Positions 24,059 through 54,876 of a stretch of DNA of 64,000 bases are shown here, one piece after another. Each line of letters begins with the position of its first letter. Within the stretch, counting starts at the first letter, position 1. Position numbers and translations under genes: made by a program. Source of the DNA: Dehalococcoidia bacterium (GTDB taxonomy: Bacteria; Chloroflexota; Dehalococcoidia; Lucifugimonadales; UBA2985); contig DAOUJC010000006.1 of the NCBI GenBank assembly GCA_034423135.1, forward strand, positions 65,670-129,669, read 5' to 3'. Under the pieces are notes generated by a model, which was not told the DNA's origin, did no database searches, and was given only the letters and a program-made list of their open reading frames with translations.

Positions 24059-24195
24059 GGAAGCACGAGCGGGGAGCGCACAGCTTACGAATCTTACATT
24101 TTGCAGCGGGTACTACCACAACCCGGCTCACTGCGTTACAATGAACGGCGGAAGCGAACCAGGGGCACACATCCGGTGTCCCCAAGGAGGTGGAG

Positions 24196-25459: not shown

Positions 25460-25463
25460 TGCG

Positions 25464-26837
25464 CTACCGCCTTCTCCGGCGGGAGGCCCGCGCCCGGCCG
25501 TGCTGAATGTTCGCTTCGTTCTCCTGAGACAGGTACCTGAATCTCCGGTTGTGGTCCTGCAAGCCCGTCAAGGTCATCCTGTCACGCTTTTCCCTGTTGC
25601 ACGGGGGGCAAAGTAGAGTGAGGTTGTCGTAGGCGTCGCTCCCGCCGTCGGACTTTGGCCTGATGTGGTCAACCTCCAGCACTCTGACGTCAAAGCCGTA
25701 GTAACGCCCGCAACCCTGGCAATACGGTCCAATGTGCCCCAGCAGCTTCTCGTGCTGGGAGCGAGGTGGAGGGTAGCGTTTCGCGCGCGCCGTGGGCGTT
25801 TGCAGATACAATACGGCTTCCTCCCCGCCGTCCGTCCGCACTGGTGGTGTTGTGGAGTAGTGGACGGAGCCGAAGGTAATGAGATGGGTACTGTACCTAT
25901 CGTCGTCTTCGTACGGAACAGCCAGCCCCTCGCTCTCAAGTCGGTCTAGCACCATCTGGTATGCCTTATCCCATATATCCATGCCTACCCATTGCCTGCC
26001 TAGCCTTTCGGCGGCGACCGGGGTGGTTGCACATCCGCAAAAAGGGTCAAGGACCATGTCGCCCGGGTTGCTACTGGCCCGTATAATTCGCTCGTACAAG
26101 GCTAATGGCTTCTGAGTAGGGTACCCTGTCTTCTCTGTAGAGAAGCTCTTGATCATTATGGAGTCCAATACGTCTGCCGATGAGCAGTTCCAAGTATCCT
26201 CCATAGGTATGCCCTTGCCCGTCGGCCGCTTGCCGTCGCGTCTGACATAATCAGCTGTGTAGGGAATGTATTCTTTGTTGAATTGCTTTATGCCACTGGC
26301 CGTCTTAACATAGTAGAGAAGTGTCTCATGGTTCCTAATCCATCCGCGCTTCTGACTCTTGAAGCCGCTAATCCAGCCGATGCGCCATACGATTTCGTTC
26401 CTGAAGTTGGCCTTGCCAAACACGGCGTCCATCAACGCCTTAACCCAGGCGTGAGCCGTGTGGTCAATGTGGAGGTAGATGGAGCCGGTGGGTTTGAGTA
26501 CGCGGCGCATCTCTAGTAGGCGTACCCCCAGCCAGCAGATGAAGGCTCCCATATCATAGCCGTAGACATTCTTGGCGGCGTTGATTACGTGCCAAACCTC
26601 TGGGCTGTCCCGCTGAATCTTGATGAGCCAGTCGTCGTGAATGTCGTCTCGCCAACTCCATCGGTCCTGGAAGCTGGAGCCGGCAGCAAGAGAGTCAGGC
26701 GTGGCGTGGAAGTCCCTGCTCTTGTTGAATGGCGGGTCGGTGGCGATAAGATCAACGGTCTCGCTGTTCATCCCGCGCAAGAAGTCCAAGTTATCGCCGT
26801 GATAGAGGGAGCGGTTAGGAAAATTGGGTTCAGACAT
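25464..26837 (-). CDS. beta-class (N4/N6) DNA methyltransferase fused to a C-terminal HNH nuclease domain
   Basis: Motif IV DLIATDPPF near the N-terminus, motif I VLDPFCGCATTPVAAERLGR later. C-terminal CQGCG...EVDHIRPKSDGGSDAYDNLTLLCPPCN (HNH with two CxxC pairs) and an Arg-rich tail. Hand-sampled lines inside the gene are about 42% GC. Confidence 0.85.
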   Translation of the reverse strand: MSEPNFPNRSLYHGDNLDFLRGMNSETVDLIATDPPFNKSRDFHATPDSLAAGSSFQDRWSWRDDIHDDWLIKIQRDSPEVWHVINAAKNVYGYDMGAFICWLGVRLLEMRRVLKPTGSIYLHIDHTAHAWVKALMDAVFGKANFRNEIVWRIGWISGFKSQKRGWIRNHETLLYYVKTASGIKQFNKEYIPYTADYVRRDGKRPTGKGIPMEDTWNCSSADVLDSIMIKSFSTEKTGYPTQKPLALYERIIRASSNPGDMVLDPFCGCATTPVAAERLGRQWVGMDIWDKAYQMVLDRLESEGLAVPYEDDDRYSTHLITFGSVHYSTTPPVRTDGGEEAVLYLQTPTARAKRYPPPRSQHEKLLGHIGPYCQGCGRYYGFDVRVLEVDHIRPKSDGGSDAYDNLTLLCPPCNREKRDRMTLTGLQDHNRRFRYLSQENEANIQHGRARASRRRRR

Positions 26838-26945
26838 GATGTTGATTGAATGCGTAGATTAGTGCGCCATGATCAAAGGCTACATATGTTCTAACACGTT
26901 GGCGTAGCAATGTCAACGCCGGTATAAGCAAATTACCTTTTGGAC

Positions 26946-28142
26946 TCACTCCCCCAACCCCATCACCGTGTCCACGTCCTTGTCCCCGCGGCCGCTCAGG
27001 CACATCACCACCACCGCGTCCGCGGGCAGCGTCGGCGCCAGGCGACTCACGTAGTACACCGCGTGCGCAGGCTCCAGCGCCGGTATGATGCCCTCCGCCG
27101 TCGAGAGCAGGTGGAATCCCTCCAGCGCCTGCGAGTCGGTCACGGCGACGTACTCCGCCCGGCCCGTGTCCTTCAGATAGCTGTGCTCCGGCCCGACGCC
27201 CGGGTAGTCCAGACCCGCCGATATGCTGTGGGTCTCCCGCACCTGCCCGTGCTTGTCCTGCAGCAGGTACGACATGGCGCCGTGCAGCACGCCCGGCCTG
27301 CCCGCCACGAGCGTAGCAGCGTGCTTCGCCGACTCGGTGCCCTCGCCGCCGGCCTCCACGCCCACGAGCCTCACCGACTCGTCACCGAGCATCGGGTGGA
27401 ACAGGCCTATCGAGTTGCTGCCTCCGCCCACGCAGGCCACGGCGTAGTCCGGCAGTCGGCCCTCTGCCTCGATAGCCTGACTACGCGCCTCTTCGCCGAT
27501 GACCGACTGAAAGTCGCGTACCATCATGGGGTACGGATGCGGGCCCACGGCGCTTCCGAGCAGGTAGTAGGTGGTGCGCACGTTGGTCACCCAGTCCCGA
27601 ATGGCCTCGTTGATGGCGTCCTTAAGCGTGCGGCTGCCCGACGTCACGCCTCGCACCTCTGCGCCGAGAAGGCGCATCCGGTACACGTTTATGGCCTGCC
27701 GGCGCATGTCCTCCTCGCCCATGTACACTAGGCACTCCAGCCCCAGCATGGCGCATGCCGTGGCGGTTGCGACGCCGTGCTGTCCAGCGCCCGTCTCGGC
27801 TATGATGCGCTGTTTGCCCATGCGCACGGCGAGCAGCGCCTGTCCGAGCGCGCTGTTGATCTTGTGCGCGCCGGTGTGCGCCAGGTCCTCACGCTTCAGG
27901 TAGATGCGAGCGCCGCCCAGCCTGCGCGACAGGTTCTCGGCGAAGTACAGCGGCGTGGGCCGCCCCACGTACGATCTCAGGTAGTAGGACAGCTGCGCCC
28001 GATACACCGTGTCCTCAAGGGCGTCGCGGTACGCCGTCACCAGCTCCTCGAGCGCGGTCATCAGCGTCTCCGGCACATACCGCCCGCCGTGGTTGCCGTA
28101 GCGGCCCCAGGGGTCCGGCAGATTCAGGATGCTCTCGTTCAT
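26946..28142 (-). CDS. trpB: tryptophan synthase beta chain
   Basis: Internal ATG 28142 gives [28 protein letters not shown]...[20 protein letters not shown]. It forms an ATGA overlap with the trpF stop. Confidence 0.9.
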
Positions 28143-28828
28143 CCGGAGGCCTCGCCGCCGGGCGACAGCTCCCTGTCGGTGTGCTGCACCTGCTCGATGA
28201 ACCGCGCGATCTTCGCCGCATCCTTCCGGCCGTCCGTCTCCACGCCGCTGGACACGTCCAGGCCCCAAGGCCTCACGCGCTGCATCGCTTCCGCGACGTT
28301 CTCCGGGCTCAGGCCGCCGGCCAGCACGAACGGGTGGCTGAGCGCCAGCTCCCTGCCGACGTCCCAGTTGAACGCCTGTCCGGTGCCGCCCAGGACGCCC
28401 TCCTTGTAGGTGTCCAGCTGGACCGTGAATCCGCCATTGCGATAGGCGTTCACTGTATCCTGAATGTCTTTCAGCACGTCCGCCTGCGGGGCGTCGCTGC
28501 GCACGTGAACCACCTTGACGACGGGGCGGCAAACCTCCGCGCAGTAGTCCATCGACTCATGGCCGGACAGCTGGGCCACGTCCATGTCGCAGTGGACCAG
28601 CAGCCGGTTGACCTCCTCAAGAGGCTGGTTGGCGAACACGCCCACCCACTGCGGCGCGCTGCCCTGCCATCGCTCGCGGAACGCACGCACGAGGTCGCGT
28701 GCGTCGTCCTCGTCAAGGCGCCGCCGGCTGCGCGGCTCGAAGAGTATGCCCAGGTAGTCGGCGCCCGCCTCCGCCGCGGCCAGGGCGTCGTCCAGCTTGC
28801 TGAGGCCGCAAATCTTGACTCTGGTCAT
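28139..28828 (-). CDS. trpF: phosphoribosylanthranilate isomerase
   Basis: [30 protein letters not shown]...[11 protein letters not shown]. Confidence 0.85.
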
Positions 28829-28850
28829 GCCTGATCCTCGCTTTCGCCGG

Positions 28851-30317
28851 CTAGCCCAGGAAGTGGCGGAGCTGAGCGGCCTCCTCGACGTAGTTGAAGA
28901 CGTTGACGGCGGCGTCGCCCCTGTCCAGGCCGGCCCAGACTGCGCTGGTCAGCCCCTCGTGGACGCGGTCGATGTCGTTGGCAAACTGAGCCACCAGGCT
29001 AACGTACTTCTCGCCCAGCAGCTCGCGCACGCGCTGCTCGTTCGTGAAGCGCAGCGCGGCGCGGAGGTCGCCGTCCAGGCTGGGATACACCTCACGCACG
29101 AACTCCAAGTCGTTGGGGCTGAGGCCGGCCATGCCCAGCAGCTCCGGCGGAACTCCGATGGAGTAGAGCGCCGCGGAGAAGCCGATGGCCCTAGGGAGCG
29201 TGACGCCGCCGCCCAGCGTGCGTCCGTAGCCGAACAGCCCGACGTGCATCCTGCGCTCCCGGCGCCTGGGCACGTATGCGGCCACGTTCGATATGAAGCT
29301 GGCCAGCAGCTGCACCTGCGACTGGTACTCGGCCCTGGCCTTGTCGATCACCTCGCGGGCGCGTTGCTCGTCGATTGGCACCGGCTCGCTCTTATCGTGC
29401 GCCAGGATCTCGGCGATGCCGCGCTGGACTTCGTCCCTGGAGTAGTCGTACTTGAAGGCGGACTGGACTGTAAGCGTGTGCGCGCTGGGGTACTCGGTGA
29501 AGGCGCGGTCGACGTTGAGTGGAGTCAGGTGGCCGCGGAAGGGCACGCTGCCTGCGCCGATGATGGGGTAGATGCCGAGACCGATGCGCTGCTCCAGCCC
29601 GTGCAGTCGTTGCAGCGCCACCTTCAGCACAAGCTCTGCGGTTACCACGCCGTAGTTGAGGGCGGGATCGCTGCGGGCCAGGAACACTCGCTGGAACGGC
29701 AGATCCCGGTTGCGCACGTACTCCTCGACGATGCTGTCGCAGGTGAGCATGCTGTCCAGGTCCTCGACCAGCGGGACCACCCTGAGCTCCTTGGGGCAGA
29801 ACTCGCCGACCCAGTCCTTGACGATCTGGTCGCCAAGGAGCGCGCTCTCCTCCTGCTCCACTATAACCTTCCGGTAGTACGCCTCCACCATCGCCAGCTC
29901 CCACGCCGAGGTGGTCAGAGGCAGGATCACCTCCTGGATGGGAGCGTCGGCGCCCTCGCCGTAGAAGGTGGTGGCCGTGTCCCAGGCGGACGGAATGCTC
30001 TGCAGCGCCTCCACCATGGACTTGCGCATATTCCGCTCCACGCTTGGGTTGGGCACGCGCAGGGTCAGGGACACGTCCCGGCCCAGGCGCAGGCTGTCGA
30101 AGACGCGGGAGTAGCCGGTGAGGAGCTTGCGCACGACGTGGTTGTCGGCCTCCTTGCCCTCGGAGTCCCACATCTGCTCGTCGCAGCCCAGCGCGAAGAC
30201 GTCGACAGCCTCGTCGACCTCGCCCTCACCCTTCACGACGCCGTCGGCATCGGCGAAGGGCGCGGGCCTTGCGTTGTCCGGGTGCTGCGTGCTCATCACC
30301 TTTGGAATCAGTGCCAC
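28851..30317 (-). CDS. ppcA: archaeal-type phosphoenolpyruvate carboxylase
   Basis: The N-terminal IPKVMSTQHPDN signature is characteristic of PepcA-type enzymes. About 490 aa. Confidence 0.75.
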   Translation of the reverse strand: MALIPKVMSTQHPDNARPAPFADADGVVKGEGEVDEAVDVFALGCDEQMWDSEGKEADNHVVRKLLTGYSRVFDSLRLGRDVSLTLRVPNPSVERNMRKSMVEALQSIPSAWDTATTFYGEGADAPIQEVILPLTTSAWELAMVEAYYRKVIVEQEESALLGDQIVKDWVGEFCPKELRVVPLVEDLDSMLTCDSIVEEYVRNRDLPFQRVFLARSDPALNYGVVTAELVLKVALQRLHGLEQRIGLGIYPIIGAGSVPFRGHLTPLNVDRAFTEYPSAHTLTVQSAFKYDYSRDEVQRGIAEILAHDKSEPVPIDEQRAREVIDKARAEYQSQVQLLASFISNVAAYVPRRRERRMHVGLFGYGRTLGGGVTLPRAIGFSAALYSIGVPPELLGMAGLSPNDLEFVREVYPSLDGDLRAALRFTNEQRVRELLGEKYVSLVAQFANDIDRVHEGLTSAVWAGLDRGDAAVNVFNYVEEAAQLRHFLG

Positions 30318-37475: not shown

Positions 37476-38984
37476 GTGCGTAGGTCTCCAGCGACTTTGT
37501 ATTACTCCCTTATGAATGCGAACGAGCGACAGCAACCGCTTCCCGGCTTAACTCCCCGACTTTCGTACCCCTTTGGAACTGAGCACGCCCGCTCCTCGGG
37601 CGACCCATCGCCAAACGGTGGTGGCAACGCTGAGCGCCTTGCCCTATACCGGAGATTTGAGGATCGGCTCTCCACTGGCTCATTCCTGACTCGCAAAGTG
37701 GTGTCATACCAGGGAAACCGACGCGCACCGGGGTTTCGCTGGATGAAGTACAAGGAGGCATTCTCCGCAGCCTTGGTGGGCCACCTCATAGATGACGTCA
37801 AGCCCACCTCTGTCCTAGACCCATTCGCAGGCATCGGCACTACGCCCCTCTTGGCCGCCGGCCGTGGCCTATCAGCCACCGGCATCGAGATAATGCCCAT
37901 AGGGGTGTTGACTGGAAACGCGATTGCCCTCGCTGCCAACGGCCTGAGCTCGGCTGACTTTAGATGTGCTGCGTCTGCTATTCTTGACCACGGCCTGTCG
38001 GGCGCCGAACCTGGGCCAGAGTACGCGTTTCCCCATGTGCGAATTACGGCGTCGGCGTTCCCTCCTGAAACCGAGATAGAGATCGCGAAAGCGCGGGAGT
38101 TCCTGAATGCAGTGGACGACTCCGAAACCCGCGCCATACTCGACTTCGCCTGCATGAGCGTTCTGGAGGAAGCGAGCTACACTCGCAAGGACGGACAGTA
38201 CCTGCGATGGGACTACAGGTCTGGGCGGCCCCTGAGAGCACGCGTTCACAAAGGGCCGGTCCTGACTTTCGCAGCCGCTCTCGAGGCCCGCTTGGGCGAG
38301 ATGTCAGAGGATCTGGAACCATTGAAGCGGAGGTACGGTGGCGGCCGTCCGGAACTCGTCGAGGGCTCCAGCCTGGACCAACTAAGACGGCTGCCGGACG
38401 GCTCTTTCGATCTGGTTGTGACGTCGCCGCCTTACGCCAATCGCTACGACTACACGAGGACATACGCCTTAGAGCTTGCGTGGCTCGGATACAACGATCA
38501 AGCGTTCGGCATCCTTCGCCAGAGGTTGCTGTCCGCCACCGTTGAGAACAGGTCCAAGATGGGCTACCTGCAGAAACAGTACGGCGACTCGCCGCTACTA
38601 GCAGCCGCGATAGAAATGTACGAGGGTCAGGGCGCGCTGAACGAAGCACTCTCCATTCTCAGGGAACACGCTAGTGAGTTGAGCAACCCTCACGTGATAC
38701 GCTTGCTGGAAGGGTACTTCCTCGAAATGGCCTTGGTTGTTGCCGAACTGGGGCGCATTGTAGCGCCGGGAGGCGCCGTGTTCATGGTCAACGACAACGT
38801 GCAGTATCATGGCGAAGAGGTGCCGGTGGACCTGATCTTATCTGACTTCGCCGAGCAATCTGGATTCACTTGCGAGCACATCTGGGCGCTGCCGCGAGGA
38901 AAGGGGAACTCCAGCCAACAAATGGGGCGCTTTGGACGTCGAGAGCTTCGGAAGTGCGTGTACAAGTGGGTACGGTGTCAATGA
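37476..38984 (+). CDS. DNA methyltransferase with motif I preceding an SPPY motif IV (N4-C or N6-A)
   Basis: VLDPFAGIGTTPLLAAGRG (AdoMet motif I) lies about 190 aa upstream of DLVVTSPPYANRYDY. Alternative ATG start at 37512. Hand-sampled GC is lower, about 55%. Confidence 0.7.
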   Translation: MRRSPATLYYSLMNANERQQPLPGLTPRLSYPFGTEHARSSGDPSPNGGGNAERLALYRRFEDRLSTGSFLTRKVVSYQGNRRAPGFRWMKYKEAFSAALVGHLIDDVKPTSVLDPFAGIGTTPLLAAGRGLSATGIEIMPIGVLTGNAIALAANGLSSADFRCAASAILDHGLSGAEPGPEYAFPHVRITASAFPPETEIEIAKAREFLNAVDDSETRAILDFACMSVLEEASYTRKDGQYLRWDYRSGRPLRARVHKGPVLTFAAALEARLGEMSEDLEPLKRRYGGGRPELVEGSSLDQLRRLPDGSFDLVVTSPPYANRYDYTRTYALELAWLGYNDQAFGILRQRLLSATVENRSKMGYLQKQYGDSPLLAAAIEMYEGQGALNEALSILREHASELSNPHVIRLLEGYFLEMALVVAELGRIVAPGGAVFMVNDNVQYHGEEVPVDLILSDFAEQSGFTCEHIWALPRGKGNSSQQMGRFGRRELRKCVYKWVRCQ

Positions 38985-39925
38985 ACAAGCAGGAAGACGC
39001 AAAGAGGCGTTCGTCAGTCATCGCCCAGCGAATCCAAGAGAGGACGGATATCGCTCTACGCCAGATCATCGATGAATTCTCTGATGAGTTGACGTTCACA
39101 CCTCTGGACGGACTGATGATAAGCCAGGCAGCGTGGGCTCACGTTGCCGCCTCCGGCTTCAACCCCAAACTCGTATTTGCCCATCCCGACTTGCTAAGGA
39201 AACACCCGCGCATCTCCACGTACTATCGCGGTATTGCTTTGCTTCCGCGGAAGCGCGTCAGTGAATTGGCATCTCCAGTCGACTCCTGGGAGGAGGGCAG
39301 ACGCGCAAGCGAGATCCAGGAAGCGCAGGCCCTGCGCGTAGCGCGACTGTACAATGCCGTCATTTCGTCCATTATCGAGGGCTCCACGGGATGGACGCTG
39401 GAGAACGGTTACAGGAACATCATCGCCAACATGGGCATCGGTTTGGACGGGACCGTGCGCAATCTAATCGGCCAGGACGCGGAGCAGCTCATCAAGACCA
39501 GAATCAGGGATTGGCTTGACAGCCGACAGCTTATAGCAGGTCGGAACGAAGACCAGACCAGGTTCGAGCTGCCCAGCGGCTACGCGATGCGCTTTGGATC
39601 AGAGCCGGACATCGAGTTTAGCCGGATTGTCTCCGGTGAAGCTAGGGTTGTTGCCACGATAGAGATTAAGGGAGGGAAGGATCGCGCCGGCGCGCTGGAG
39701 AGACTGGGAGCTGTCCAGAAGAGCTTTCAGGCAACTCCCCCCGGTTGCATGAACATTCTCATCGCAGGTGTCGTAACAAGAGAAATGGAGAGCCGTCTTG
39801 CTGAGATGGGTGTTGGCCGCGTATTCATGCTTGACGAACTCGCCAACGATGGTGATTCCTGGCTAGGCTTCCTGAACGAGGTCTTCCACTACACGGTGCG
39901 AATCACGCAGGCGGTCATCACTTAG
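38981..39925 (+). CDS. candidate type II restriction endonuclease (PD-(D/E)xK)
   Basis: ATG 38981 overlaps the methyltransferase TGA (ATGA). GSEPDIEF...VATIEIKGG fits a PD...ExK catalytic core. The family could be XcyI/Cfr9I-like, but that was not verified. Confidence 0.55.
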   Translation: MNKQEDAKRRSSVIAQRIQERTDIALRQIIDEFSDELTFTPLDGLMISQAAWAHVAASGFNPKLVFAHPDLLRKHPRISTYYRGIALLPRKRVSELASPVDSWEEGRRASEIQEAQALRVARLYNAVISSIIEGSTGWTLENGYRNIIANMGIGLDGTVRNLIGQDAEQLIKTRIRDWLDSRQLIAGRNEDQTRFELPSGYAMRFGSEPDIEFSRIVSGEARVVATIEIKGGKDRAGALERLGAVQKSFQATPPGCMNILIAGVVTREMESRLAEMGVGRVFMLDELANDGDSWLGFLNEVFHYTVRITQAVIT

Positions 39926-45672: not shown

Positions 45673-46119
45673 ATGACAAAGCGACTACAGGTAATGCTGA
45701 ACCATGAGGAATACGGCGAGATAGAGACCTACGCCCGGGGCAGTAGAATGACCGTAGCGGAGTGGGTACGGCAAGCACTGCGCAGAGCCAGACAGGGCGC
45801 AGCTGGAAGCTCAGTGAGGGAAAGTTCGGCCACATACTTTACTCAGAGAGGATTAGTATACTATACTACTGCCATGACAAAGCGACTGCAAGTGCTGCTG
45901 GATGAGGAAGAACTCGGAGAGATTCAGGACGTGGCACGCGGGCAACGCCTGACTGTCGCCGAGTGGGTGCGCCAGTCCCTGCGTCAGGCCCGGCGGGAAT
46001 TGCCCGGCGCTCCGGACGTAAAGCTACGCGCCATCGCCGAGGCATATCGCCACTCCTATCCAACCGGTGACATAGGCGCCATGCTGGATGAGATTGAAGC
46101 CGGCCGGCAGCTGCAGTGA
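45673..46119 (+). CDS. vapB: tandem-duplicated ribbon-helix-helix antitoxin (VapB-VapB fusion); a second in-frame start at 45874 would give a conventional 81-aa VapB
   Basis: MTKRLQVMLNHEEYGEIETYARGSRMTVAEWVRQALRRAR is repeated as MTKRLQVLLDEEELGEIQDVARGQRLTVAEWVRQSLRQAR 67 aa later. Confidence 0.65.
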   Translation: MTKRLQVMLNHEEYGEIETYARGSRMTVAEWVRQALRRARQGAAGSSVRESSATYFTQRGLVYYTTAMTKRLQVLLDEEELGEIQDVARGQRLTVAEWVRQSLRQARRELPGAPDVKLRAIAEAYRHSYPTGDIGAMLDEIEAGRQLQ

Positions 46120-46511
46120 TCTTCATAGACTCCAACATACCCATGTACCTTGTTGGCGCACCTCACGCCAACAAAGACCGCACCCTGGCGCTTCTCACCA
46201 AGCTGATTGGGGACGGAGAACGTCTGGTCACAAGCGTGGAGGTGTACCAGGAGATAATTCACAGGTACATTGGGCTCAAGCGTCCGGATGCAATTGACCC
46301 AGCGTTCCGAGCGCTCGACGACGTAGCCGACGAAGTGCTGTCGTTCGGTATGCCTGAGGTGCGCGCCGCCAGGGAGCTGATTCGAGCGGGTGGCGGACTG
46401 TCCTCGCGTGACGCGCTCCACGTGGCCGTGATGCGCAGCGCCGGCACCAACCGCATTCTAAGCTTCGACGCGGGATTCGACGAGTGCCCGGGCATAGAGC
46501 GCCTGGCGTAA
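46116..46511 (+). CDS. vapC: PIN-domain toxin VapC
   Basis: The GTG start overlaps the vapB stop (GTGA). MIFIDSNIPMYLVG...SRDALHVAVM carries acidic PIN residues. Confidence 0.8.
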   Translation: MIFIDSNIPMYLVGAPHANKDRTLALLTKLIGDGERLVTSVEVYQEIIHRYIGLKRPDAIDPAFRALDDVADEVLSFGMPEVRAARELIRAGGGLSSRDALHVAVMRSAGTNRILSFDAGFDECPGIERLA

Positions 46512-46536
46512 GCCGCCCAGGCCCGCAGCCTCGTCG

Positions 46537-47796
46537 CTATTCGGAGACGCCTGACAAGGCGGACGCAGCGCCCTCCAGCGGCACCTCTCGCTGCTCGGCG
46601 TGGGACATGTCGCGGAGCACGACCACGCCGCGGCTGAGTTCGTCATCGCCAAGGATCAGCGCGTAGGGGATGTCCATGGCGTTGGCATAACGCAATTGTG
46701 CCCTCAGGCTGCGACCGGCCGGGGCGAGGATTGCTCCTATACCGACGCTCCTCAGCTCCGATGCCAGAGCCACCGCCCGATTGGTGGCCGAGTCTCCCAG
46801 GTGGACCACCACTACTCTAAGCGATTCTCGGCCGGGGACCGGCACGCCCTGCCGCTTCAGGTTGAGGATTATGCGCTCCAGGCCTGCCCCAAACCCTATG
46901 CCGGGTGTGGGCGGGCCATCCAGTTGCTCCATCAGCCCGTCGTAGCGGCCACCGCCGCAGATGTTGGTCTGCCCGCCTTCCTCCGGCGGCTGAATTTCGA
47001 AGACCGTCCTTGAGTAGTAGTCCAGGCCGCGCACCAACCGCGGTTCCACCCGGAAGGGAATGCCCAGCGCGCTCAGGTATCCCAGCAGCCGCTCCCAGTG
47101 CTCACGACTGTCCGGGCAGAGGTGCTCGTCAGTGCGCGGCGCTTCGAGAGCCATTTCGATACAGACCGGCTGCTTGCAGTCCAGCAGGCGGAGTGGATTG
47201 CGATCAAACCTCACCTTGCAGTCGTTGCAGAGGTGTTCGCTGTGGGGGGCGAAGTGTTCGCGAAGTCGCTGGAGGTAGGCCGGCCTGCTGTCGGAGTCGC
47301 CGATTGAGTTCACGAGCAGAGAGAGGTTCCTGAGGCCGAGCTCACTCATGAAGCTCCATGCCAGCTCTATGACCTCGGCGTCCACGGACGGGTCGGCGTC
47401 GCCTATGGCCTCCACCCCGAACTGGTGGTGCTGGCGGTACCGTCCTGCCTGCGGACGATCGTAGCGGAATATGGGGCAGAAGTAGAAGAGACGCACCGGC
47501 TGGGGAAGGTTGCGCATCCCATGCTCCAGGTATGCGCGACAGACGGGGGCTGTGCCCTCAGGTCGAAGGGCGATGTGGTCACCGCCGCGGTCTTCGAAGG
47601 TGTACATCTCTTTCTCGACGATGTCGGTGACCTGGCCTACGCCGCGCACGAAGAGGCCGCTGCTCTCGAACACAGGCGTGTCCAATTGGCCATAGCCGAA
47701 GCGGCGCGCGATGTCGCGTGCAACGCCTTCCACGTAGCGCCAGTAAGGCTGGTCCTGGGGCAGGATGTCCGCCGTGCCTCTTGGGGCGCGATACAA
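46537..47796 (-). CDS. hisS: histidine--tRNA ligase
   Basis: (TTG)YRAPRGTADILP...FRYDRPQAGRYRQHHQFGVE...GGGRYDGL class II motifs. GGGAGGG lies 5 nt upstream of the TTG. Confidence 0.9.
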   Translation of the reverse strand: MYRAPRGTADILPQDQPYWRYVEGVARDIARRFGYGQLDTPVFESSGLFVRGVGQVTDIVEKEMYTFEDRGGDHIALRPEGTAPVCRAYLEHGMRNLPQPVRLFYFCPIFRYDRPQAGRYRQHHQFGVEAIGDADPSVDAEVIELAWSFMSELGLRNLSLLVNSIGDSDSRPAYLQRLREHFAPHSEHLCNDCKVRFDRNPLRLLDCKQPVCIEMALEAPRTDEHLCPDSREHWERLLGYLSALGIPFRVEPRLVRGLDYYSRTVFEIQPPEEGGQTNICGGGRYDGLMEQLDGPPTPGIGFGAGLERIILNLKRQGVPVPGRESLRVVVVHLGDSATNRAVALASELRSVGIGAILAPAGRSLRAQLRYANAMDIPYALILGDDELSRGVVVLRDMSHAEQREVPLEGAASALSGVSE

Positions 47797-48051
47797 TTGA
47801 GCCCTCCCAAATGTTGAATTCGGCAGATTGAAGGATAGTGCAATAGACGGGGTTTGCCAAGGTGGAAGCCGATTGTATCTCAGTCTGAATCGGGGGCTCG
47901 AACCGAGACCTTCGTCTCAGTCACGGCGAGGGCCTTCCCGTTCGCAGAACGCAGGAACTTTAGTTGACCGTGTACTTGTCCAAGCCCAAGTGGTGTAACC
48001 GCTCCCATTTCATCCTGAACAACTGGTGAAGGGGCGGCAATACATTCACCT

Positions 48052-49338
48052 CTATCGTCTGCGTCGCCTCACCCGGCGTTGAGCTACCCGCCCAATGCGT
48101 AGGTTACCTTCGTTCTTCATGTAACCATTGGTGCGATTGCGGTCCTGAAGGGCCGAGAGCGTGTAGTAGTCTCGCTTCTCTTTGTTGCACGGAGGACAAA
48201 GCAGTGTGAGGTTATCGTAGGCGTTGCTTCCACCGTCGGATCGTGGGCGAATGTGGTCTACCTCCAGTACACGAGCGTCAAAAGTGTAGTCGGCGCCACA
48301 GCCCTGGCACAGCGGACCTATGTCCTCTACCAGCTTCCCGTGCTGGGTGCGCGGTGCCGGGTGGCGTTCCCGCGCACGTCCCAGGGGCGTCCGAAACACC
48401 ACGGCCGCCATTTCTCCAGCATCTGTCCTAGCGGGCGGTGTTGTGGAGAAGAGAACTTGAGGGTTGGCATCAACGAGCAACTGCTTGTTGGCCTCTAGCC
48501 GACTCCGTACTAAGTCAAGAGCACCCTTCCAGATGTCTATTCCGACCCACTTACGCCCAAGCCGTTCAGCCGCGATGCAAGTTGTTGCACAGCCCGCAAA
48601 TGGATCAAGAACCATGTCACCTGGGTTGCTGCTTACTTGGATGAGTCGTTCATAAAGGGCTAGGGGCTTCTGAGTAGGGTAGCCCGCGGCCTTCTTTTCT
48701 GGATCTGTAGGGCTGGTAATCTTCGGTACGTCTGTCCACCAGTCATTGATTGGCGTCCCTTCATTCCGCAGGCCTTGGTCAAAATACTTGCCCTTGATAG
48801 CTGTTCGGCCACGCTGCAGTGTACCGTCCGAGTAGTCGCGGTAGATCGTGTTAAACACGCACTCCGCCGACTTGGTATAGCGGAGCAGAGTGTCGTGCTT
48901 CCTGGGGAAGTCATGTCTAGGAACACCGCCACCTGCGTAGCACCACACTATTTCGTTCCTGAAATTCTCCCGCCCAAATATAGCGTCTAGGAGGCACTTC
49001 ACCCATGCGTGCGCAGTGTGGTCAATGTGAAGGTACAGGCTTCCATTGTCTGCAAGAACACGATGCATTTCCAGCAGCCGGACGCCCAGCCAACAGAGGA
49101 AGGCGCCCATGGCCTCACTGTGGACAGCCTTGGCGGCAGATATGACCTGCCAGACCTCCGGCTCGTCACGCTGTAGAGTTTCCAGCCACTCATCATGTAC
49201 ATCGTCCCGCCAGCGCCAGCGGTCCTGAAAGCTCGCTCCTGAGGCCAAACTGTCCGGCGTGGCGTGGAAGTCACGGCTCTTGTTGAAGGGCGGGTCAGTA
49301 GCGATGAGATCGACGGTCCCACTGTTCATGCCCCGCAA
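48052..49338 (-). CDS. second beta-class DNA methyltransferase-HNH fusion (paralog of 25464..26837), N-terminally truncated by an upstream in-frame TAA
   Basis: DLIATDPPF, GYPTQKPLALYER, VLDPFAGCATT and EVDHIRPRSDGGSNAYDNLTLLCPPCN. Homology continues in frame upstream to GTG 49395 but is interrupted by TAA at 49375-49377. Confidence 0.7.
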   Translation of the reverse strand: MRGMNSGTVDLIATDPPFNKSRDFHATPDSLASGASFQDRWRWRDDVHDEWLETLQRDEPEVWQVISAAKAVHSEAMGAFLCWLGVRLLEMHRVLADNGSLYLHIDHTAHAWVKCLLDAIFGRENFRNEIVWCYAGGGVPRHDFPRKHDTLLRYTKSAECVFNTIYRDYSDGTLQRGRTAIKGKYFDQGLRNEGTPINDWWTDVPKITSPTDPEKKAAGYPTQKPLALYERLIQVSSNPGDMVLDPFAGCATTCIAAERLGRKWVGIDIWKGALDLVRSRLEANKQLLVDANPQVLFSTTPPARTDAGEMAAVVFRTPLGRARERHPAPRTQHGKLVEDIGPLCQGCGADYTFDARVLEVDHIRPRSDGGSNAYDNLTLLCPPCNKEKRDYYTLSALQDRNRTNGYMKNEGNLRIGRVAQRRVRRRRR

Positions 49339-49620
49339 GAAGTCGAGGTTGTCTCCGTGAAAGAGTGTGCGGTTTTAGAAGTTGCGCTGGGCCACGGTGA
49401 TCCTCCTGGGCGTTAGGTGAAGCGCGTCACGCCTAGCTTGCCAAGGCAATCTACAACGGGTAGAATTGTAGCACACTGTGCCAGCGGCGCACTCAAATTC
49501 TGTGTGTGCAACAGTGGACTCGCCACCGCACACTTGGAATACAATGGGTGCAGCCATCTCCCCCAAGCCAATCGCGGTTGGGAGAACGGCGAATTCCGCC
49601 ACTTGGCGGTCGTTCACAAT

Positions 49621-49695
49621 GCGCTTGTAGCTCAGATTGGATAGAGCGCAGCCCTGCGAAGGCTGAGGCCGTGGGTTCAAGTCCCGCCAAGCGCA
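49621..49695 (+). tRNA. tRNA-Arg, anticodon GCG
   Basis: Hand-folded cloverleaf. Acceptor GCGCTTG/CAAGCGC, D arm GCTC/GAGC, anticodon stem CAGCC/GGCTG with loop CTGCGAA, T arm GTGGG-TTCAAGT-CCCGC, discriminator A. No encoded CCA. Confidence 0.85.
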
Positions 49696-49780
49696 CTATC
49701 TCCGTTCGACTGCGGTCGGGTCTGGCCGATCAACCGGCGCCCGCCGCATGGCCCGAATCGCTTCACGCTAAGGAGGAACG

Positions 49781-52066
49781 ATGACGACCACGGAGAATCG
49801 CCCCACCGACTACAAGGTCATTGGTACACGTCCCATCCGGCACGACGGCGTGGACAAGGTCACAGGTCGTGCCAAGTACGGCGCCGACATGATCATGCCC
49901 GGCCTGCTTTACGGCAAGGTGCTCCGCAGCCCTCATGCCCACGCGCGCATCCTGAGTGTGGACACGAGCCGCGCTGAGGCCCTGCCCGGCGTCAAGGCAG
50001 TGGTAACCGGACAGGATATGCCTCGCATCAGCGGCAGGGTGTCTATCGCCGGCGGCGAGGGCGGCGCCATCAACCTGGACTACTACCGCGAAATGATCCT
50101 GGCCTCCGAAAAGACGCTCTTCAAGGGCCATCCGGTCGCAGTTGTGGCCGCCGAAAGCCGGCACGTGGCTGAGGAGGCGCTCTCACTCATCGACGTCCAG
50201 TACGAGGTGCTGCCCTACGTGCTCACCGCGCCTGAGGCTATGGCGGAGGGCGCGCCTGTGATCCTGGAAGACCTGAGGACGCGTTCGATGGGCCGCGTCA
50301 CGGAAAACGTGGGAAACGTGGCCACATATGACAAGTACGCGCTCGGCGACTCGGAGGAAGGGTTCCGGAATGCGGACATAGTGGTGGAGCGCGAGTTCAC
50401 CACGTCCACCGTCCATCAGGGCTACATTGAGCCGACGAACTCCACGGTGCTCTGGAACCCCGACGACGAGGTCACCGTGTGGACCAGCAACCAAGGCCCG
50501 TTCTACGTGCGCCGCGCCACCGCCGCGCTCCTTGGCCTCTCGGAGTCCCAGGTACGGGTCATGCCAATGGAGATTGGCGGCGGGTTTGGGGGCAAGATTC
50601 TCTGCTATCTTGAGGCGCCTGCCGCGCTGCTCTCGCGCAAGACCGGCCGCCCCGTCGAGATTGTGATGAGCAGGGCGGAGGTGCTGGAGGCCACCGGGCC
50701 AACGTCCGGCTCGTACATGCGCGTGAAGATCGGCGCAACCAAGGACGGAAAGATCACCGCTGCGGAGGCGTACCTGGCCTTCGAGGCGGGAGCCTATCCA
50801 GGCTCGCCCGTTGCGGGCGCCGCCCGGTGCATGTTCTCGCCGTACGCCATCGAGAACGTCACGATCGATACCTATGACGTCATAGTCAACAAGCCTAAGA
50901 CAGGCGCGTACCGGGCGCCGGGTGCGACGCACGGCTCCTTCGCCGTCGAGACCATCGTAGACGAGATATGCCGCTCGCTCGACATCGACCCGATGGAGTT
51001 CAGGATCCGAAACGCCTCCGCAGAAGGAGACCGCCGGTCCGACGGCGTCGTGCACCCACGCGTTGGGAACCTGGAGACCCTGCATGAGGTCGTCGCCAGC
51101 GACCACTGGAACACGCCGCTTGAAGGCCCGAACCGAGGGCGGGGTATCGCGAGCGGCTACTGGGGCAATGGCGGGCTGGAGTCCAGCGCCACGCTGAGCG
51201 TCAACTCCGACGGCAGCGTGAGCCAGGTTACCGGCTCCGTGGACATCGGCGGTACGCGGGCCTCCACGGCCATGCACGCTGCGGAGGTGCTGGGCATCCG
51301 CGCGGAGGACGTGCACCCCATCGTCGGCGATACGGGCGCCATCGGCTACACCGCCGTCACCGGCGGCAGCCGCACCGCCTTCGCGACCGGCTGGGCCACC
51401 TACGAGGCGGCGCATGACGTGGTCAGGAAGATGAAGGAGCGCGCCGCCCTGATCTGGGAAACCTCGGCTGAGCAAGTCGACTTTGCCGATGGCGCATTCA
51501 GTCACAGGGCGAACCCGGAGCAACAGATGACGTTCAAGGAGCTGGCGGCGAGGCTCATGGACACGGGCGGCCCGGAGATTGGCAGCGCCACAGTCAGCCC
51601 CAAGGGCGTGGGCCCGTCCTTCTCAACCCACCTGGTTGACGTGGAGGTGGACCCGGAGACGGGCAAGGTGGACATTCTGCGCTACACGACCTTCACCGAC
51701 GTGGGCAAGGCCATTCACCCAAGCTACGTGGAGGGCCAGATTCAGGGCGGCGTCGTGCAGGGCATAGGCTGGGCTCTCAATGAGGAGTACTACTACGACG
51801 CAGTCGGGCGGATGGCGAACTCCAGCCTGCTGGACTACCGGATGCCCACCTCGCTTGACCTGCCGATGATCGATGCGGTGCTGGTTGAGGTGCCGAATCC
51901 CGGCCATCCGTACGGCGCCCGTGGTGTCGGTGAGATTCCGCTGGTGCCGCCCGTGGCCGCCATTGCGAACGCCATCTACGACGCCGTAGGCGTGCGGATG
52001 CAGCAGACTCCAATGTCGCCCGGCCGCGTCCTGGAGGCACTCTGGGACAGCGAGCGGGAGGCCTAG
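49781..52066 (+). CDS. xanthine dehydrogenase/aldehyde oxidase family molybdopterin-binding large subunit
   Basis: AAGGAGG RBS. 761 aa containing KVTGRAKYGADM, GGGFGGK and ...GVGEIPLVP.. motifs. No FeS or FAD subunit genes lie adjacent. Confidence 0.85.
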   Translation: MTTTENRPTDYKVIGTRPIRHDGVDKVTGRAKYGADMIMPGLLYGKVLRSPHAHARILSVDTSRAEALPGVKAVVTGQDMPRISGRVSIAGGEGGAINLDYYREMILASEKTLFKGHPVAVVAAESRHVAEEALSLIDVQYEVLPYVLTAPEAMAEGAPVILEDLRTRSMGRVTENVGNVATYDKYALGDSEEGFRNADIVVEREFTTSTVHQGYIEPTNSTVLWNPDDEVTVWTSNQGPFYVRRATAALLGLSESQVRVMPMEIGGGFGGKILCYLEAPAALLSRKTGRPVEIVMSRAEVLEATGPTSGSYMRVKIGATKDGKITAAEAYLAFEAGAYPGSPVAGAARCMFSPYAIENVTIDTYDVIVNKPKTGAYRAPGATHGSFAVETIVDEICRSLDIDPMEFRIRNASAEGDRRSDGVVHPRVGNLETLHEVVASDHWNTPLEGPNRGRGIASGYWGNGGLESSATLSVNSDGSVSQVTGSVDIGGTRASTAMHAAEVLGIRAEDVHPIVGDTGAIGYTAVTGGSRTAFATGWATYEAAHDVVRKMKERAALIWETSAEQVDFADGAFSHRANPEQQMTFKELAARLMDTGGPEIGSATVSPKGVGPSFSTHLVDVEVDPETGKVDILRYTTFTDVGKAIHPSYVEGQIQGGVVQGIGWALNEEYYYDAVGRMANSSLLDYRMPTSLDLPMIDAVLVEVPNPGHPYGARGVGEIPLVPPVAAIANAIYDAVGVRMQQTPMSPGRVLEALWDSEREA

Positions 52067-52176
52067 GGCAACTCAGCTACTCGGCACTTGCTGCTGCTCG
52101 TACATCAAGTACGGAATGTTGACGGCTCAAAACGAAACGCGTGACTCGGAGCTCCCTCAGCAACAGGAGGAATGAG

Positions 52177-54876
52177 ATGGTACAGGTACAGGCGGAGAGG
52201 GCCACCAGGCCGCAGTCCTTGGCGGGCATACGTGTGCTGGACTTCACTTGGGTGCGCGCTGGCCCGTGGGGTTGCCGGTGGCTGGGAACGCTCGGCGCGG
52301 AGGTCATCAAGATCGAGTGGCCGCAGAACCCGGACATGATTCGCAATCCCGGTCTCATGAGCCTGCCTGGCATTGAGCCGAGCCTCAACTCCAACTACAT
52401 GTTCAACGACACGAACGCCAACAAGATGGGCGTGACGCTCAACGTACGCTCGGAGAAGGGCATGGGCTTGCTCAAGCGGCTAATCGAAGTCTCGGACGTC
52501 ATCGTCGAGAACTACAGCTCCCGCGTGCTGCAGAGCTGGGGCCTCCCATTCGAGGAGCTGAACAAGATCAAGCCCGGCATAATCTACGTCTCGCAGGCCG
52601 GTTTCGGCCACACGGGGCGAAATCACACCTACCAGACGATGGGCCCCGTCGCTCAGGCATTGTCCGGCATGACCCACCTCTCAGGGCTGCCGGGCGAGGA
52701 GCCGTCAGGCTGGGGCTGGTCGTACCTGGACGATACGGGCGGCATGTACACCGCAATGGGCGCGCTGACCGCTCTCAACCATCGCAACATGACCGGTCAG
52801 GGGCAGCACGTCGACCTTTCACAGATGATCATTGGCATACCGCTCAACGGCCCGGCGCTGCTTGACCTCACGATCAACGGCAGGAGCGTGCGGCGTGAGG
52901 GTTTCCCGCCCGGCAACCGCGCCCACTGGCCCGGCACGCCTCTGGTGCACAACTACCGCGGCCCCGTCGTCGCGCCGCACAACGCCTATCGAACAAAGGG
53001 CGGCGGCTATTACGACTGGTGTACCATCGCATGCTTCTCCGACGCCGAGTGGTGCAGCCTGGTAGAGGTGATGGGCTCGCCCGAGTGGGCCTGCTCGGAG
53101 CGGTTCGCCACGCTGCGAGGCCGCCTGGAGAATCAGGAGGAGCTTGACCAGCTCATCGAGTCCTGGACGCTGACGGTTGAGCGATACGAGATCATGGAGC
53201 GCTGCCAGGCTGCCGGGGTCCGCTCCATGCCCGTGCAGAGCAACAGGGACCGGGTGGCCAACGACCCTCAGCTGCGTCACCGAGAGATGTACAAGGAGAT
53301 GGAGCATCCCCTGCTCGGCACGCACCTCTTCCAGAACGCACCCTTCAAGATGTCGGATTCGCCTGCCTTCAACCACAGGCCGGCGCCGATGATCGGCCAG
53401 CACAACCGGCTGGTCTTCGAGGGCCTGCTGGGGATGTCACACGAGGAGCTGGTAGAGTGCTACGAGGACGGCACGTTCTGGCCCACCTCAGTGGACCGCT
53501 ACCCATACGTGGATGAGCTGATTCAGGCGGGCCAGGTGACCCCTGAGGAGTCGGCGGAGCTGGCCGAGACCAGGCCCCTCCACGATGCGGACGGTTCGCG
53601 GAGGAATGGTGCTGAGACTGTTGATCACGGCCCACTGCACGGCCTTCGCGTGCTGGAGCTCTCGGACGAGAAGGCGCAGTGGGCGGGCAAGCTAATGGCC
53701 GACTTCGGCGCGGACGTCATCAAGATCGAGCCGCCCGGAGGCCAGTCTACGCGCACCGTCGGCCCGTTCTACCAGGACCTGCCTGACCGCGAGCGCAGCC
53801 TCTACTTCTGGCACTACAACACGTCCAAGCGCGGCATTACTCTGGACCTGGAGTCAGAGGACGGCCGGGGCCTGTTCCGCAGGCTGGCGGCGGGCGCGGA
53901 CGTGATTCTGGAGACGTTCAAGCCTGGCTATCTGCCCTCGCTCGGCCTGGGGTATGACGACCTGAAGGATGACAACCCCGGCCTGATCATGTGCTCGCTG
54001 ACGCCGTTCGGTCAGAGCGGCCCGTGGAGCCAGTTCGCAACGAGCGACCTCATCCAGCTGTCGGCCGGCGGCCAGATGGGCTGCTGCGGCTACAACGAGG
54101 AGGACGTGGATGATCCTCCGCCCATCGCAGGCGGCGGAGGACAGTCGTGGCACATGGGCAGCCACTACGCCTACATCGCCATGATGGCGGCGCTCAATCA
54201 GCGGGCAGTCACTGGACGCGGCCAGTACATCGACTCTGCCGTTCACGACGCCTGCGCTCTCACCACCGAGATGCACGTGCTCACGTACATCTACACCGGC
54301 GAGGAGGTCCGCCGCAACACCGGCAGGCACGCCTCGTCGCCCACAGGCTTCTCACAGCCCAAGAGCCAGCTGCGGTGCAGCGACGGCAAGTACGTGAACG
54401 CGTCGCTGCCTCCGCTGCGCCTGACGCCGGCGCAGGTGAAGACGCTTGCGGAGTGGATGGACAGCTACGGCATGGCCGGCGACCTGATGGACGAGAAGTA
54501 CCAGAACCCGGAGGTCATCCGTGAGAACGGCGCGCACATCCACGGCCTTTTCGTGAAGTTCGTGGGGAGCCGGACGCAGGACGAGGTGTACCACGGCGGA
54601 CAGGAGCGGGGCTTCACGTGGGGCGCAATTCGAGCGCCGGACGACCTGGTGGAAGACGGCCACCTGAACGACCGCGGCTTCTGGACGCCGGTTGAGCACC
54701 CGGAGCTTGGCGCGACCTTCACGTATCCCGGCCCTGCGGGCATCTACAACGGCTCGCCGTGGCGCATCTCCCGGAGGGCGCCGCTGATCGGCGAGCACAA
54801 CGCCGAGGTGCTCTGCGGAGAACTGGGCCTGAGCAAGGCGGAGCTGTCGGTACTGGCAGAGAGCGGAGTGGTTTAA
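52177..54876 (+). CDS. tandem-fused family III (CaiB/BaiF) CoA-transferase, paralog of 4110..6776
   Basis: Start placed at ATG 52177, 6 nt after AGGAGG. Same two-module architecture. Long identical runs with the first copy, for example RVLDFTWVRAGPW, SLYFWHYNTSKRGITLDLE and NGSPWRISRRAP. Confidence 0.85.
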   Translation: MVQVQAERATRPQSLAGIRVLDFTWVRAGPWGCRWLGTLGAEVIKIEWPQNPDMIRNPGLMSLPGIEPSLNSNYMFNDTNANKMGVTLNVRSEKGMGLLKRLIEVSDVIVENYSSRVLQSWGLPFEELNKIKPGIIYVSQAGFGHTGRNHTYQTMGPVAQALSGMTHLSGLPGEEPSGWGWSYLDDTGGMYTAMGALTALNHRNMTGQGQHVDLSQMIIGIPLNGPALLDLTINGRSVRREGFPPGNRAHWPGTPLVHNYRGPVVAPHNAYRTKGGGYYDWCTIACFSDAEWCSLVEVMGSPEWACSERFATLRGRLENQEELDQLIESWTLTVERYEIMERCQAAGVRSMPVQSNRDRVANDPQLRHREMYKEMEHPLLGTHLFQNAPFKMSDSPAFNHRPAPMIGQHNRLVFEGLLGMSHEELVECYEDGTFWPTSVDRYPYVDELIQAGQVTPEESAELAETRPLHDADGSRRNGAETVDHGPLHGLRVLELSDEKAQWAGKLMADFGADVIKIEPPGGQSTRTVGPFYQDLPDRERSLYFWHYNTSKRGITLDLESEDGRGLFRRLAAGADVILETFKPGYLPSLGLGYDDLKDDNPGLIMCSLTPFGQSGPWSQFATSDLIQLSAGGQMGCCGYNEEDVDDPPPIAGGGGQSWHMGSHYAYIAMMAALNQRAVTGRGQYIDSAVHDACALTTEMHVLTYIYTGEEVRRNTGRHASSPTGFSQPKSQLRCSDGKYVNASLPPLRLTPAQVKTLAEWMDSYGMAGDLMDEKYQNPEVIRENGAHIHGLFVKFVGSRTQDEVYHGGQERGFTWGAIRAPDDLVEDGHLNDRGFWTPVEHPELGATFTYPGPAGIYNGSPWRISRRAPLIGEHNAEVLCGELGLSKAELSVLAESGVV

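Follow-up and report, generated by a model that had tools for sequence, protein, structure and literature searches.

Beta-class DNA methyltransferases (MTases) carry a variable target-recognition region between motif VIII and motif X. The Mod subunits of Type III restriction-modification (R-M) systems contain such an MTase, and in mod genes, including phase-variable alleles, the central recognition region is exchanged between alleles. That recognition modules can be exchanged is an established feature of Type I, Type III and Type IIG systems. Enzymes of Type IIC/IIG/IIL (Eco57I, MmeI, BpuSI type) join MTase and nuclease in one polypeptide and are encoded by solitary genes with diversified specificity modules. 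Here we analyzed two solitary genes of a Dehalococcoidia bacterium in which a beta-class MTase is fused to an HNH nuclease. Both lie in a stretch of 64,000 nucleotides (contig DAOUJC010000006.1, positions 65,670 to 129,669, assembly GCA_034423135.1), referred to as the window. The gene at 48052..49338 (minus strand) is called copy 2 and the one at 25464..26837 (minus strand) copy 1; L numbers designate loci from related genomes and P numbers family proteins obtained by homologue searches. Our analysis makes it probable that the two copies come from a very large mosaic family of solitary MTase-HNH genes and were acquired separately, that their central segment is an exchangeable recognition cassette, and that copy 2 was inserted and then most likely recently inactivated.

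Two MTase-HNH genes and their closest described relatives

The features of the two genes that are needed for the comparison are the following.

48052..49338, minus strand: longest intact open reading frame (ORF) of copy 2, with 428 aa when read from TTG and 425 aa in the public annotation, which begins at ATG 49329 (P0001)
48511..49314, minus strand: beta-class N6_N4 DNA methyltransferase domain of copy 2 (PF01555, 143 bits, residues 9-276 of the 428-aa ORF)
48685..48942, minus strand: central segment of copy 2, variable and target-recognition-like, the 86 codons that separate NFRNEIVW from GYPTQKP
48172..48309, minus strand: HNH nuclease core of copy 2, CQGC...DH...N...CPPCN (PF01844, 48.8 bits, residues 344-389)
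25464..26837, minus strand: copy 1, an intact MTase-HNH gene of 457 aa, used as comparator

According to Pfam, both proteins consist of a beta-class DNA methyltransferase and, at the C-terminus, an HNH nuclease: PF01555 scores 143.3 and 144.9 bits (cut-off 26.7) and is followed by PF01844 at 48.8 and 49.5 bits (cut-off 21.4). PADLOC models label the MTase part as a Type II/III methyltransferase, with MTase_III models at E 1e-30, and NCBIfam gave solely a generic adenine-methyltransferase match plus similarity to IscB/Cas9-type HNH. In copy 1, DPPF (34-37), NEIVW (147-151), GYPTQKP (238-244) and LDPFCGCATT (263-272) follow one another in the beta-class order of motif IV, VIII, variable region, X and I; in copy 2, DPPF likewise comes first and DPFAGCATT last. 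The AlphaFold models have a mean pLDDT of 83.8 (copy 1) and 77.9 (copy 2).

Foldseek with the copy 1 model retrieved CcrM (E 2e-15) and M.BceJIV (target-normalised TM 0.77), as well as M.MboIIA, M.RsrI and Type III Mod, and the same enzymes were found as sequence relatives in the PDB (phmmer to E 6e-18). The window proteins share the fold of the beta-class N6-adenine MTases CcrM (6PBD), M.BceJIV (8URK), M.MboIIA (1G60) and M.RsrI (1EG2), with Foldseek E values of 2e-15 to 1e-12, and their motif order of DPPF, variable region, xPTQKP and DPFxG AdoMet loop. They differ from them by an extra helical insert after DPPF, by an AdoMet loop that reads GCATT where many relatives have GSGTT, and by the lack of a linked separate restriction gene. 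Where CcrM has a non-specific DNA-binding domain, they have the C-terminal HNH nuclease. The MTase is probably N6-adenine specific, because motif IV begins with D and not S (DPPF) and the nearest solved relatives are N6-methyladenine enzymes.

With the Type III Mod subunits (EcoP15I, 4ZCF; Mbo45V, 7DSU; H. pylori Mod, 6K0W), the two proteins have in common a beta-class MTase with conserved N- and C-terminal parts around an exchanged central recognition region. In contrast to Type III systems, the nuclease is an HNH fused in cis, there is no repeat tract suggestive of phase variation, and no res helicase-nuclease gene was found beside either copy or in 80 family loci. Like the Eco57I/MmeI type, they unite both activities in a single polypeptide, but that type is built of an N-terminal PD-(D/E)XK nuclease and a gamma-class MTase and measures ~900-1100 aa, whereas the window family combines a beta-class MTase with a C-terminal HNH in 430-530 aa. 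The HNH part matches McrA and Cas9 in the PDB and has the CxxC...DH...N...CxxCN zinc-finger HNH of McrA, of the Cas9/IscB HNH and of the HNH Type II restriction endonucleases KpnI, Hpy99I and PacI. Unlike HNH nucleases of the McrA/Cas9 type, it follows an MTase, to which a conserved TTPPxRTDxGE linker joins it, and has a poly-arginine tail at its end. No paper describing an MTase-HNH fusion was found, and as a widespread solitary unit the beta-class fusion appears uncharacterised in the literature searched.

The central segment as a probable exchangeable recognition cassette

The proteins of copies 1 and 2 are 58% identical (BLASTP, E 3e-175), and the six identical runs quoted in the original prediction were all found in the pairwise alignment. 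Amino acid identity in the conserved blocks is 77-83% (motif IV-VIII 79%, motif X-I 77%, HNH core 83%). The DNA of these blocks differs at a fraction of 0.48-0.66 of third positions and 0.15-0.18 of first and second positions, and the codon example given for this pattern reads as described. The per-block dN/dS of the pair is ~0.07 where dS could be computed; synonymous sites are saturated (pS 0.70-0.86 in conserved blocks), which agrees with the proposal of an old divergence rather than a recent duplication. Since the longest exact DNA run common to both genes is only 17 nt, recent gene conversion between them is ruled out.

The central segments have 86 residues each and are 29% identical over 77 aligned positions with 18 gaps. 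They had been called essentially unrelated. This is right for the DNA, as BLASTN aligns nt 22-456 and 712-1227 of the genes and nothing between, but slightly overstated for the proteins, whose first ~30 residues retain a common HxTLLxYxK core. The linker between the MTase and HNH parts is also unlike, as predicted (38% identity, 11 gaps).

To place the pair in its family, one homologue search per copy was made. Each gave ~8,000 matches to such methyltransferases, and nearly all of the best 120 of each carry both MTase and HNH domains. We then cut 183 relatives at two motif boundaries and compared them block by block (N, central, X-I and C-terminal). Clustering of their central segments gave 36 groups at 50% identity; at 60% the number was 59. 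The scaffolds nearest to copy 1, P0122-P0125, are 86-88/89-97/84-96% identical to it (N/X-I/C-terminal; 87/91/96% for P0122), with central segments of 139-175 aa that are 14-19% identical. The central segments nearest to that of copy 1 (72-79%; P0132 and ten others) are on proteins whose C-termini are 31-42% identical. The same holds for copy 2: its nearest scaffold, P0002, is 83/81/77% identical with a central segment at 34%, and its nearest central segments (67-73%; P0085, P0037, P0087, P0082 and P0063) come with C-termini at 35-41%. Scaffold similarity and central-segment similarity are thus decoupled throughout the family. Two other modules, each with two states, are the MTase-HNH linker and the LHIDHTAHAWVK / LHCDPTASHYLK stretch, and P0026, a double methyltransferase without HNH, has a short central segment resembling that of copy 2.

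A pair of family genes was also seen in L054 (from 2174 and from 7528). They are 5.3 kb apart and 90-97% identical over the first 60 residues, the rest being mosaic, with different central segments and different HNH subtypes. Their alignment suggests recombination between co-resident copies.

Comparison of orthologous loci gave a sharper view of the exchange. It concerns the following features.

26127..26415, minus strand: central segment of copy 1, bounded by recombination breakpoints relative to the orthologues in L173 and L174
24694..26945, minus strand: cassette 1, copy 1 with a variable downstream stretch, inserted between trpB and a conserved unknown gene (24190..24693)

P0122 and P0123 occupy the same place as copy 1, directly after trpF-trpB at the trpB/thrB locus. 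Window positions 29500..26416 are 90.7% identical in DNA to L173 and positions 26126..25448 are 86.6% identical, while the central 289 bp of copy 1 stand opposite 448 non-homologous bp in L173 and 483 bp in L174. Among relatives, the flanks and both gene ends of this locus are 80-91% identical in DNA around a non-homologous central block, and the stretch downstream of copy 1, with two small ORFs, is likewise replaced. Between copy 1 and its orthologues, the scaffold has a dN/dS of 0.05-0.08 at an unsaturated dS of 0.7-1.3. Because these orthologous loci keep 86-91% identical DNA around a non-homologous centre, copy 1 is an older resident whose central cassette was exchanged in place. The idea of a specificity module is therefore supported more by this locus than by the copy pair on which it was first based. 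Further away, L094 reads trpB, orf167, thrB with 11 nt at the position of cassette 1, trpB adjoins thrB in L095 and L096, and these more distant relatives have no methyltransferase at this locus.

The two small ORFs beside copy 1, at 25193..25459 (88 aa) and 24909..25208 (99 aa), gave no Pfam, NCBIfam, PADLOC or PHROG match and no homologue in 81 family loci, L173 or L174. We therefore rejected them as conserved partners; they are variable cargo or spurious. The 167-aa ORF at 24190..24693 (plus strand) also lacks Pfam, NCBIfam, PADLOC and PHROG matches. It is nevertheless a genuine conserved gene, 92% identical in L174 and 66% in L094 and always between the trpB side and thrB.

The structure of CcrM with DNA shows base and phosphate contacts from Loop-2B (31-61), Loop-3C, Loop-45 (119-133) and Loop-6E (172-194) (PMC6787082). 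Allowing for 8 extra residues of the PDB chain, Loop-45 and Loop-6E align with the two ends of the copy 1 variable segment, and its middle (HETLLYYVK) is a conserved core strand. This alignment supports a DNA-reading role of the segment. We conclude that the segment between NEIVW and GYPTQKP is an exchangeable target-recognition cassette, of which the two copies carry different types; it would set the sequence that is methylated.

Copy 2 lies in an insertion between hisS and tRNA-Arg

As described before, copy 2 stands alone in a lower-GC patch between hisS (46537..47796) and tRNA-Arg: the ORF list agrees, and the GC profile of the patch is mostly 51-58%, with short intragenic stretches up to 63.5%, between flanks of ~63-67%. 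The insertion is delimited by these features.

47876..49523, minus strand: insertion cassette carrying copy 2, 1,648 bp, absent from the same hisS/tRNA-Arg spacer in related genomes
49621..49696, plus strand: tRNA-Arg(GCG), flanking landmark, the same tRNA as at the empty sites of relatives
47852..47866, minus strand: TCCACCTTGGCAAAC, flanking DNA ~10 nt outside the boundary derived from L090, overlapping the -35 hexamer of the hisS promoter-like site at 47860..47832

Relatives for the comparison of the site were chosen by hisS identity (84-90%) and traced to contigs. With BLASTN, window positions 52500..49524 correspond to 2942..5918 of L090 and positions 47875..46003 to 5923..7803, so that 4 nt replace the cassette. 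In L089 it is replaced by 18 nt, and across L089, L090 and L091, where the molybdopterin dehydrogenase gene, tRNA-Arg(GCG) and hisS directly follow one another, the empty sites measure 4-18 nt. At the same point, L092 carries a gene for a 967-aa Eco57I-like protein (PF07669; L092 2912..5815, minus strand) of single-chain R-M type, which points to the tRNA-Arg/hisS spacer as a permissive hotspot for solitary R-M genes. The GC content of the cassette is 0.57 against 0.633 for the window, and its GC3 is 0.63 against 0.79-0.89 in neighbouring genes.

Copy 2 is thus a separate and later insertion. The original prediction had called the two genes anciently diverged paralogs. In the sense of a duplication within the genome this is not supported, as each copy is nearer to genes of other genomes than to the other copy. 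The copies are separate acquisitions: the insertion of copy 2 is absent from relatives while that of copy 1 is shared with relatives, and their arrival times therefore differ.

One boundary of the cassette lies just upstream of the hisS promoter-like site TTGGCA-17-TATCCT (47860..47832). The insertion is ~98 bp upstream of the 5' end of tRNA-Arg and not at its 3' end. The TCCACCTTGGCAAAC sequence recurs imperfectly, with 11/15 matches and in direct orientation, as TCCACTGTTGCACAC at 49504..49518, a position just within the opposite end of the cassette; this repeat is of weak significance and may be due to chance. No integrase or transposase was found in the cassette of copy 2. Comparison of the two cassettes with each other and with the rest of the family gave no common non-coding ends and no inverted repeats. 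Apart from the tRNA, the cassette gave no Rfam match for a non-coding RNA. A 23-nt inverted match to the tRNA 3' end and a 9-nt CCTTGGCAA match were both at chance level. We rejected a tRNA-targeting integrative element in view of the distance of ~98 bp from the 5' end of the tRNA, the lack of an integrase and the weakness of the 11/15 repeat; tRNA adjacency is also not typical of family loci.

Two observations were made beside the insertion. Inside the cassette, a promoter-like site, TTGCCA-17-TAGAAT (10/12 matches; 49438..49466, plus strand), faces tRNA-Arg, and the insertion may have changed what drives this tRNA. Adjoining hisS is a pair of toxin-antitoxin type, NikA-like and PIN (45673..46119 and 46116..46511, both plus strand); because the pair is kept at the same place in L090-L092, it lies outside the insertion.

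A premature stop codon in copy 2

Upstream of TTG 49338, the frame of copy 2 runs on to a GTG at 49395. The earlier range for this gene (to 49395) included this part, 49339..49395, without mention of the in-frame TAA that it holds.

49393..49395, minus strand: ancestral start codon GTG of copy 2, frame MAQRNF-stop-NRTLFHGDNLDFL, matching the family N-terminus MxExNFxNRTLYHGDNLDFL
49402..49407, minus strand: AGGAGG, a Shine-Dalgarno-like motif 6 nt upstream of the ancestral GTG, as read from the sequence
49375..49377, minus strand: in-frame TAA, codon 7 of the ancestral frame, a premature stop

The translation from GTG 49395, MAQRNF-stop-NRTLFHGDNLDFLRGMNSG, aligns with the N-termini of homologues (MxExNFxNRTLYHGDNLDFLRGMNS). 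None of ~75 relatives from genome loci is stopped within this conserved N-terminus. At the position of the TAA they have E, K, Q, A, P and others, and since the stop replaces a variable residue, one base change would be enough to produce it. The TAA is also present in a separate Logan assembly of SRR13587050, identical over 418 aligned bases. The stop removes the nearly invariant N5, F6, N8, R9, L11, H13, G14, D15, N16 and F19 and the invariant L17, which in the copy 1 model form the strand 10-13 (pLDDT 93-95) and part of the helix 16-22. The longest ORF of copy 2 lacks residues 1-19 and hence a complete N-terminal methyltransferase core.

The rest of copy 2 keeps every family-invariant residue, including those of the HNH. 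Of 155 strongly conserved positions, it departs from the family at 7; the family median is 5, and 24 of 80 relatives depart at as many or more. Judging from the reading frame, copy 2 was most likely inactivated by a nonsense codon, and the event looks recent because the remainder of the gene is undegraded. With a stop at codon 7 of the ancestral frame, copy 2 should not be assumed to provide a working second specificity. The proposal that both genes were maintained by purifying selection is thus right for the history of the scaffold, as seen in the dN/dS values between the copies and against the orthologues of copy 1, but does not extend to the present state of copy 2.

Distribution of the family and its neighbours

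The two catalytic domains, MTase and HNH, are conserved throughout the family, with DPPF, DPF.GCATT and C..C/DH/N/C..CN among the invariants; the HNH residues C373, D390, H391, N405, C410 and N414 are invariant in 90 sequences, and C376 and C413 nearly so. The HNH module is mostly joined to PF01555 and at times stands at the N-terminus of otherwise unassigned proteins. Genome matches are mostly from Dehalococcoidia, the others from Poribacteria, Acidimicrobiales ('Poriferisodalis'), 'Porisulfidus', Caldilineaceae, and Alpha- and Gammaproteobacteria. Going by these names and not by sample metadata, the carriers would be a sponge-symbiont assemblage of several phyla, mostly metagenome-assembled genomes. 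Several genomes have two or more family copies.

The gene is solitary and horizontally mobile. In 80 loci, the solely recurrent neighbours were an IS1595-like transposase (9/80) and a luciferase-like oxidoreductase, and no conserved partner gene was found apart from this transposase. The luciferase-like oxidoreductase belongs to a family that we take to be common in these genomes, and we rejected it as a partner because it probably recurs by chance. A zinc-ribbon/DDE transposase ORF adjoins the MTase-HNH gene in, for example, L003, L025, L034, L048, L052 and L080; from reading of the sequences we take it to belong to IS1595. It is a possible vehicle for some family members, though not for the two window copies. 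Searches of cultured phages and PLSDB plasmids gave matches to the MTase part alone and no record covering at least 80% of the protein, and a phage or plasmid origin of the full-length fusion was rejected on this ground. In IMG/VR, two contigs carry distant full-length relatives (38-40% identity).

Three side observations concern related arrangements. In L021, the N-terminal coding part of the family gene occurs twice, ~300 bp apart (~5956 and ~6258), as a tandem partial duplication. In L174, a gene call of at least 594 aa at 1..1146 (minus strand), which extends past the end of this locus, has precomputed Pfam matches to N6_N4 methyltransferase, Mrr_cat and NA-iREase1; our scan of 382 residues of this ORF confirmed the methyltransferase part only, and the gene would be another methyltransferase-nuclease fusion in a genome with a copy 1 orthologue. 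In the window itself, a third island of R-M type lies at 37476..39925 (plus strand), in a stretch of 58-59% GC. One ORF of the island (502 aa) has a PF01555 match that is borderline; a restriction endonuclease of the XcyI family (351 aa; PF09571, 73 bits) overlaps or follows this ORF.

Discussion

We propose the following course of events. The two genes would have been acquired separately from a very large mosaic family of solitary MTase-HNH genes, differing in the type of their 86-residue central recognition cassette and in the type of their linker. Copy 2 came in by insertion of 1.65 kb, with this one gene, into the spacer that separates tRNA-Arg from the hisS promoter and then gained a nonsense codon at position 7, with loss of a near-invariant N-terminal strand and helix and, most likely, of activity. 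In intact members, the HNH would cut DNA that is recognised but not methylated by the MTase part, as a single-chain R-M enzyme.

Other histories of the pair were weighed against this one. We give hardly any credence to fast divergence of the central segments in place, without recombination. Their equal length of 86 aa and the weak skeleton that survives at 29% identity would agree with it, but the segments fall into discrete types that are 67-79% identical across proteins far more diverged elsewhere and absent from the closest scaffolds. The unequal blocks at the copy 1 locus (289 vs 448 or 483 bp), with sharp breakpoints in 86-91% identical DNA, already contradict it. An ancient duplication within the genome, followed by purifying selection on two functional paralogs of which one received a new specificity domain, seems quite improbable to us. 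The shared architecture, the 58-63% identity of the proteins, the dN/dS of ~0.07 in conserved blocks where it is computable, and the two or more copies in several related genomes are what such a duplication would leave. Each copy, however, has much closer relatives in other genomes, and the identity ranking already indicates that the scaffolds are not sisters. The two also differ in arrival, that of copy 2 being absent from relatives with 84-90% identical hisS and that of copy 1 shared, and the stop at codon 7 is at odds with two functional genes.

The stop codon itself could be read in two other ways. That copy 2 still functions, by restart at TTG 49338 or ATG 49329 after a six-codon leader, as a shortened active enzyme or one whose low expression limits toxicity, is unlikely but the strongest of these competing explanations. 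The 428-codon frame is intact with all family-invariant residues that remain in it and no excess of substitutions at conserved positions, and the restart codons come just 36-45 nt past the stop. On the other hand, the 19-22 residues lost are nearly invariant and, in the model, make up a strand predicted with confidence and a portion of a helix, 0 of ~75 relatives start so late, and neither TTG nor ATG is preceded by a good Shine-Dalgarno sequence (the GGAG upstream of TTG is 14 nt away). An error of sequencing or assembly in an otherwise ordinary intact gene is very improbable. The source is a metagenome-assembled genome and the codon adjoins a run of A (TTCTAAAACC), but the change is a substitution rather than an indel, with the same frame before and after it, and the Logan assembly agrees.

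A selfish element of homing type, in which the HNH would cut empty target sites and the MTase part would serve target recognition or self-protection, with mobility and not defence as its function, is the main alternative for the role of the HNH. The presence/absence polymorphism, the near-precise boundaries of a cassette without integrase or transposase, the solitary gene at most loci and the imperfect 15-bp direct repeat at or near the two ends all suit such an element. It is weakened, and in our view rather unlikely, since the sites of family members vary widely and have neither flanks nor conserved ends in common, and since L092 has an unrelated Eco57I-like gene at exactly this spot, as in a permissive hotspot and not a site chosen by a nuclease.

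We return to the reading of intact family members as self-contained single-chain R-M enzymes. It fits, because the cassette is diversifying, genomes hold multiple copies, the setting is rich in defence genes and the hotspot is shared with an Eco57I-like enzyme, and yet we hold it as possible rather than probable. Several points weigh against it or against parts of the scheme. The literature searched gave no methylation or cleavage data for any member. Known single-chain R-M enzymes consist of a gamma-class MTase with an N-terminal PD-(D/E)XK nuclease, and we know of no close precedent for R-M by a beta-class MTase-HNH fusion. The placement of the variable segment on the DNA surface derives from homology to CcrM and not from a docked model. 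The stretch equivalent to Loop-2B of CcrM, which follows DPPY, is conserved in both copies, so that they may have some of the recognition surface in common and differ only partly in specificity. Translation could start again behind codon 7, and a truncated protein from TTG 49338 or ATG 49329 might keep some activity; the two assemblies with the stop codon may go back to the same underlying reads.

In a wider reading, held with similar reserve, MTase-HNH would be an uncharacterised single-polypeptide R-M, or selfish R-M-like, system in which an exchangeable cassette directs the HNH. The family would have spread among sponge symbionts of unrelated phyla and would gain its diversity through exchange of the cassette while the chromosomal locus stays the same, copy 2 being a member freshly silenced soon after insertion into a hotspot. 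The principle of module exchange is not new; less ordinary is its vehicle, a compact beta-class MTase-HNH enzyme of ~450 aa. Should it work as a single-chain R-M enzyme, the coupling of specificity to cleavage could be studied conveniently in it, given its small size and cassette-like segment, and this coupling might be re-targeted. The window also allows the turnover of defence genes in uncultured symbionts to be followed in a clean natural series. One site is found empty or occupied by either of two unrelated R-M genes, an older locus had a module replaced in place, and one copy was probably newly silenced.

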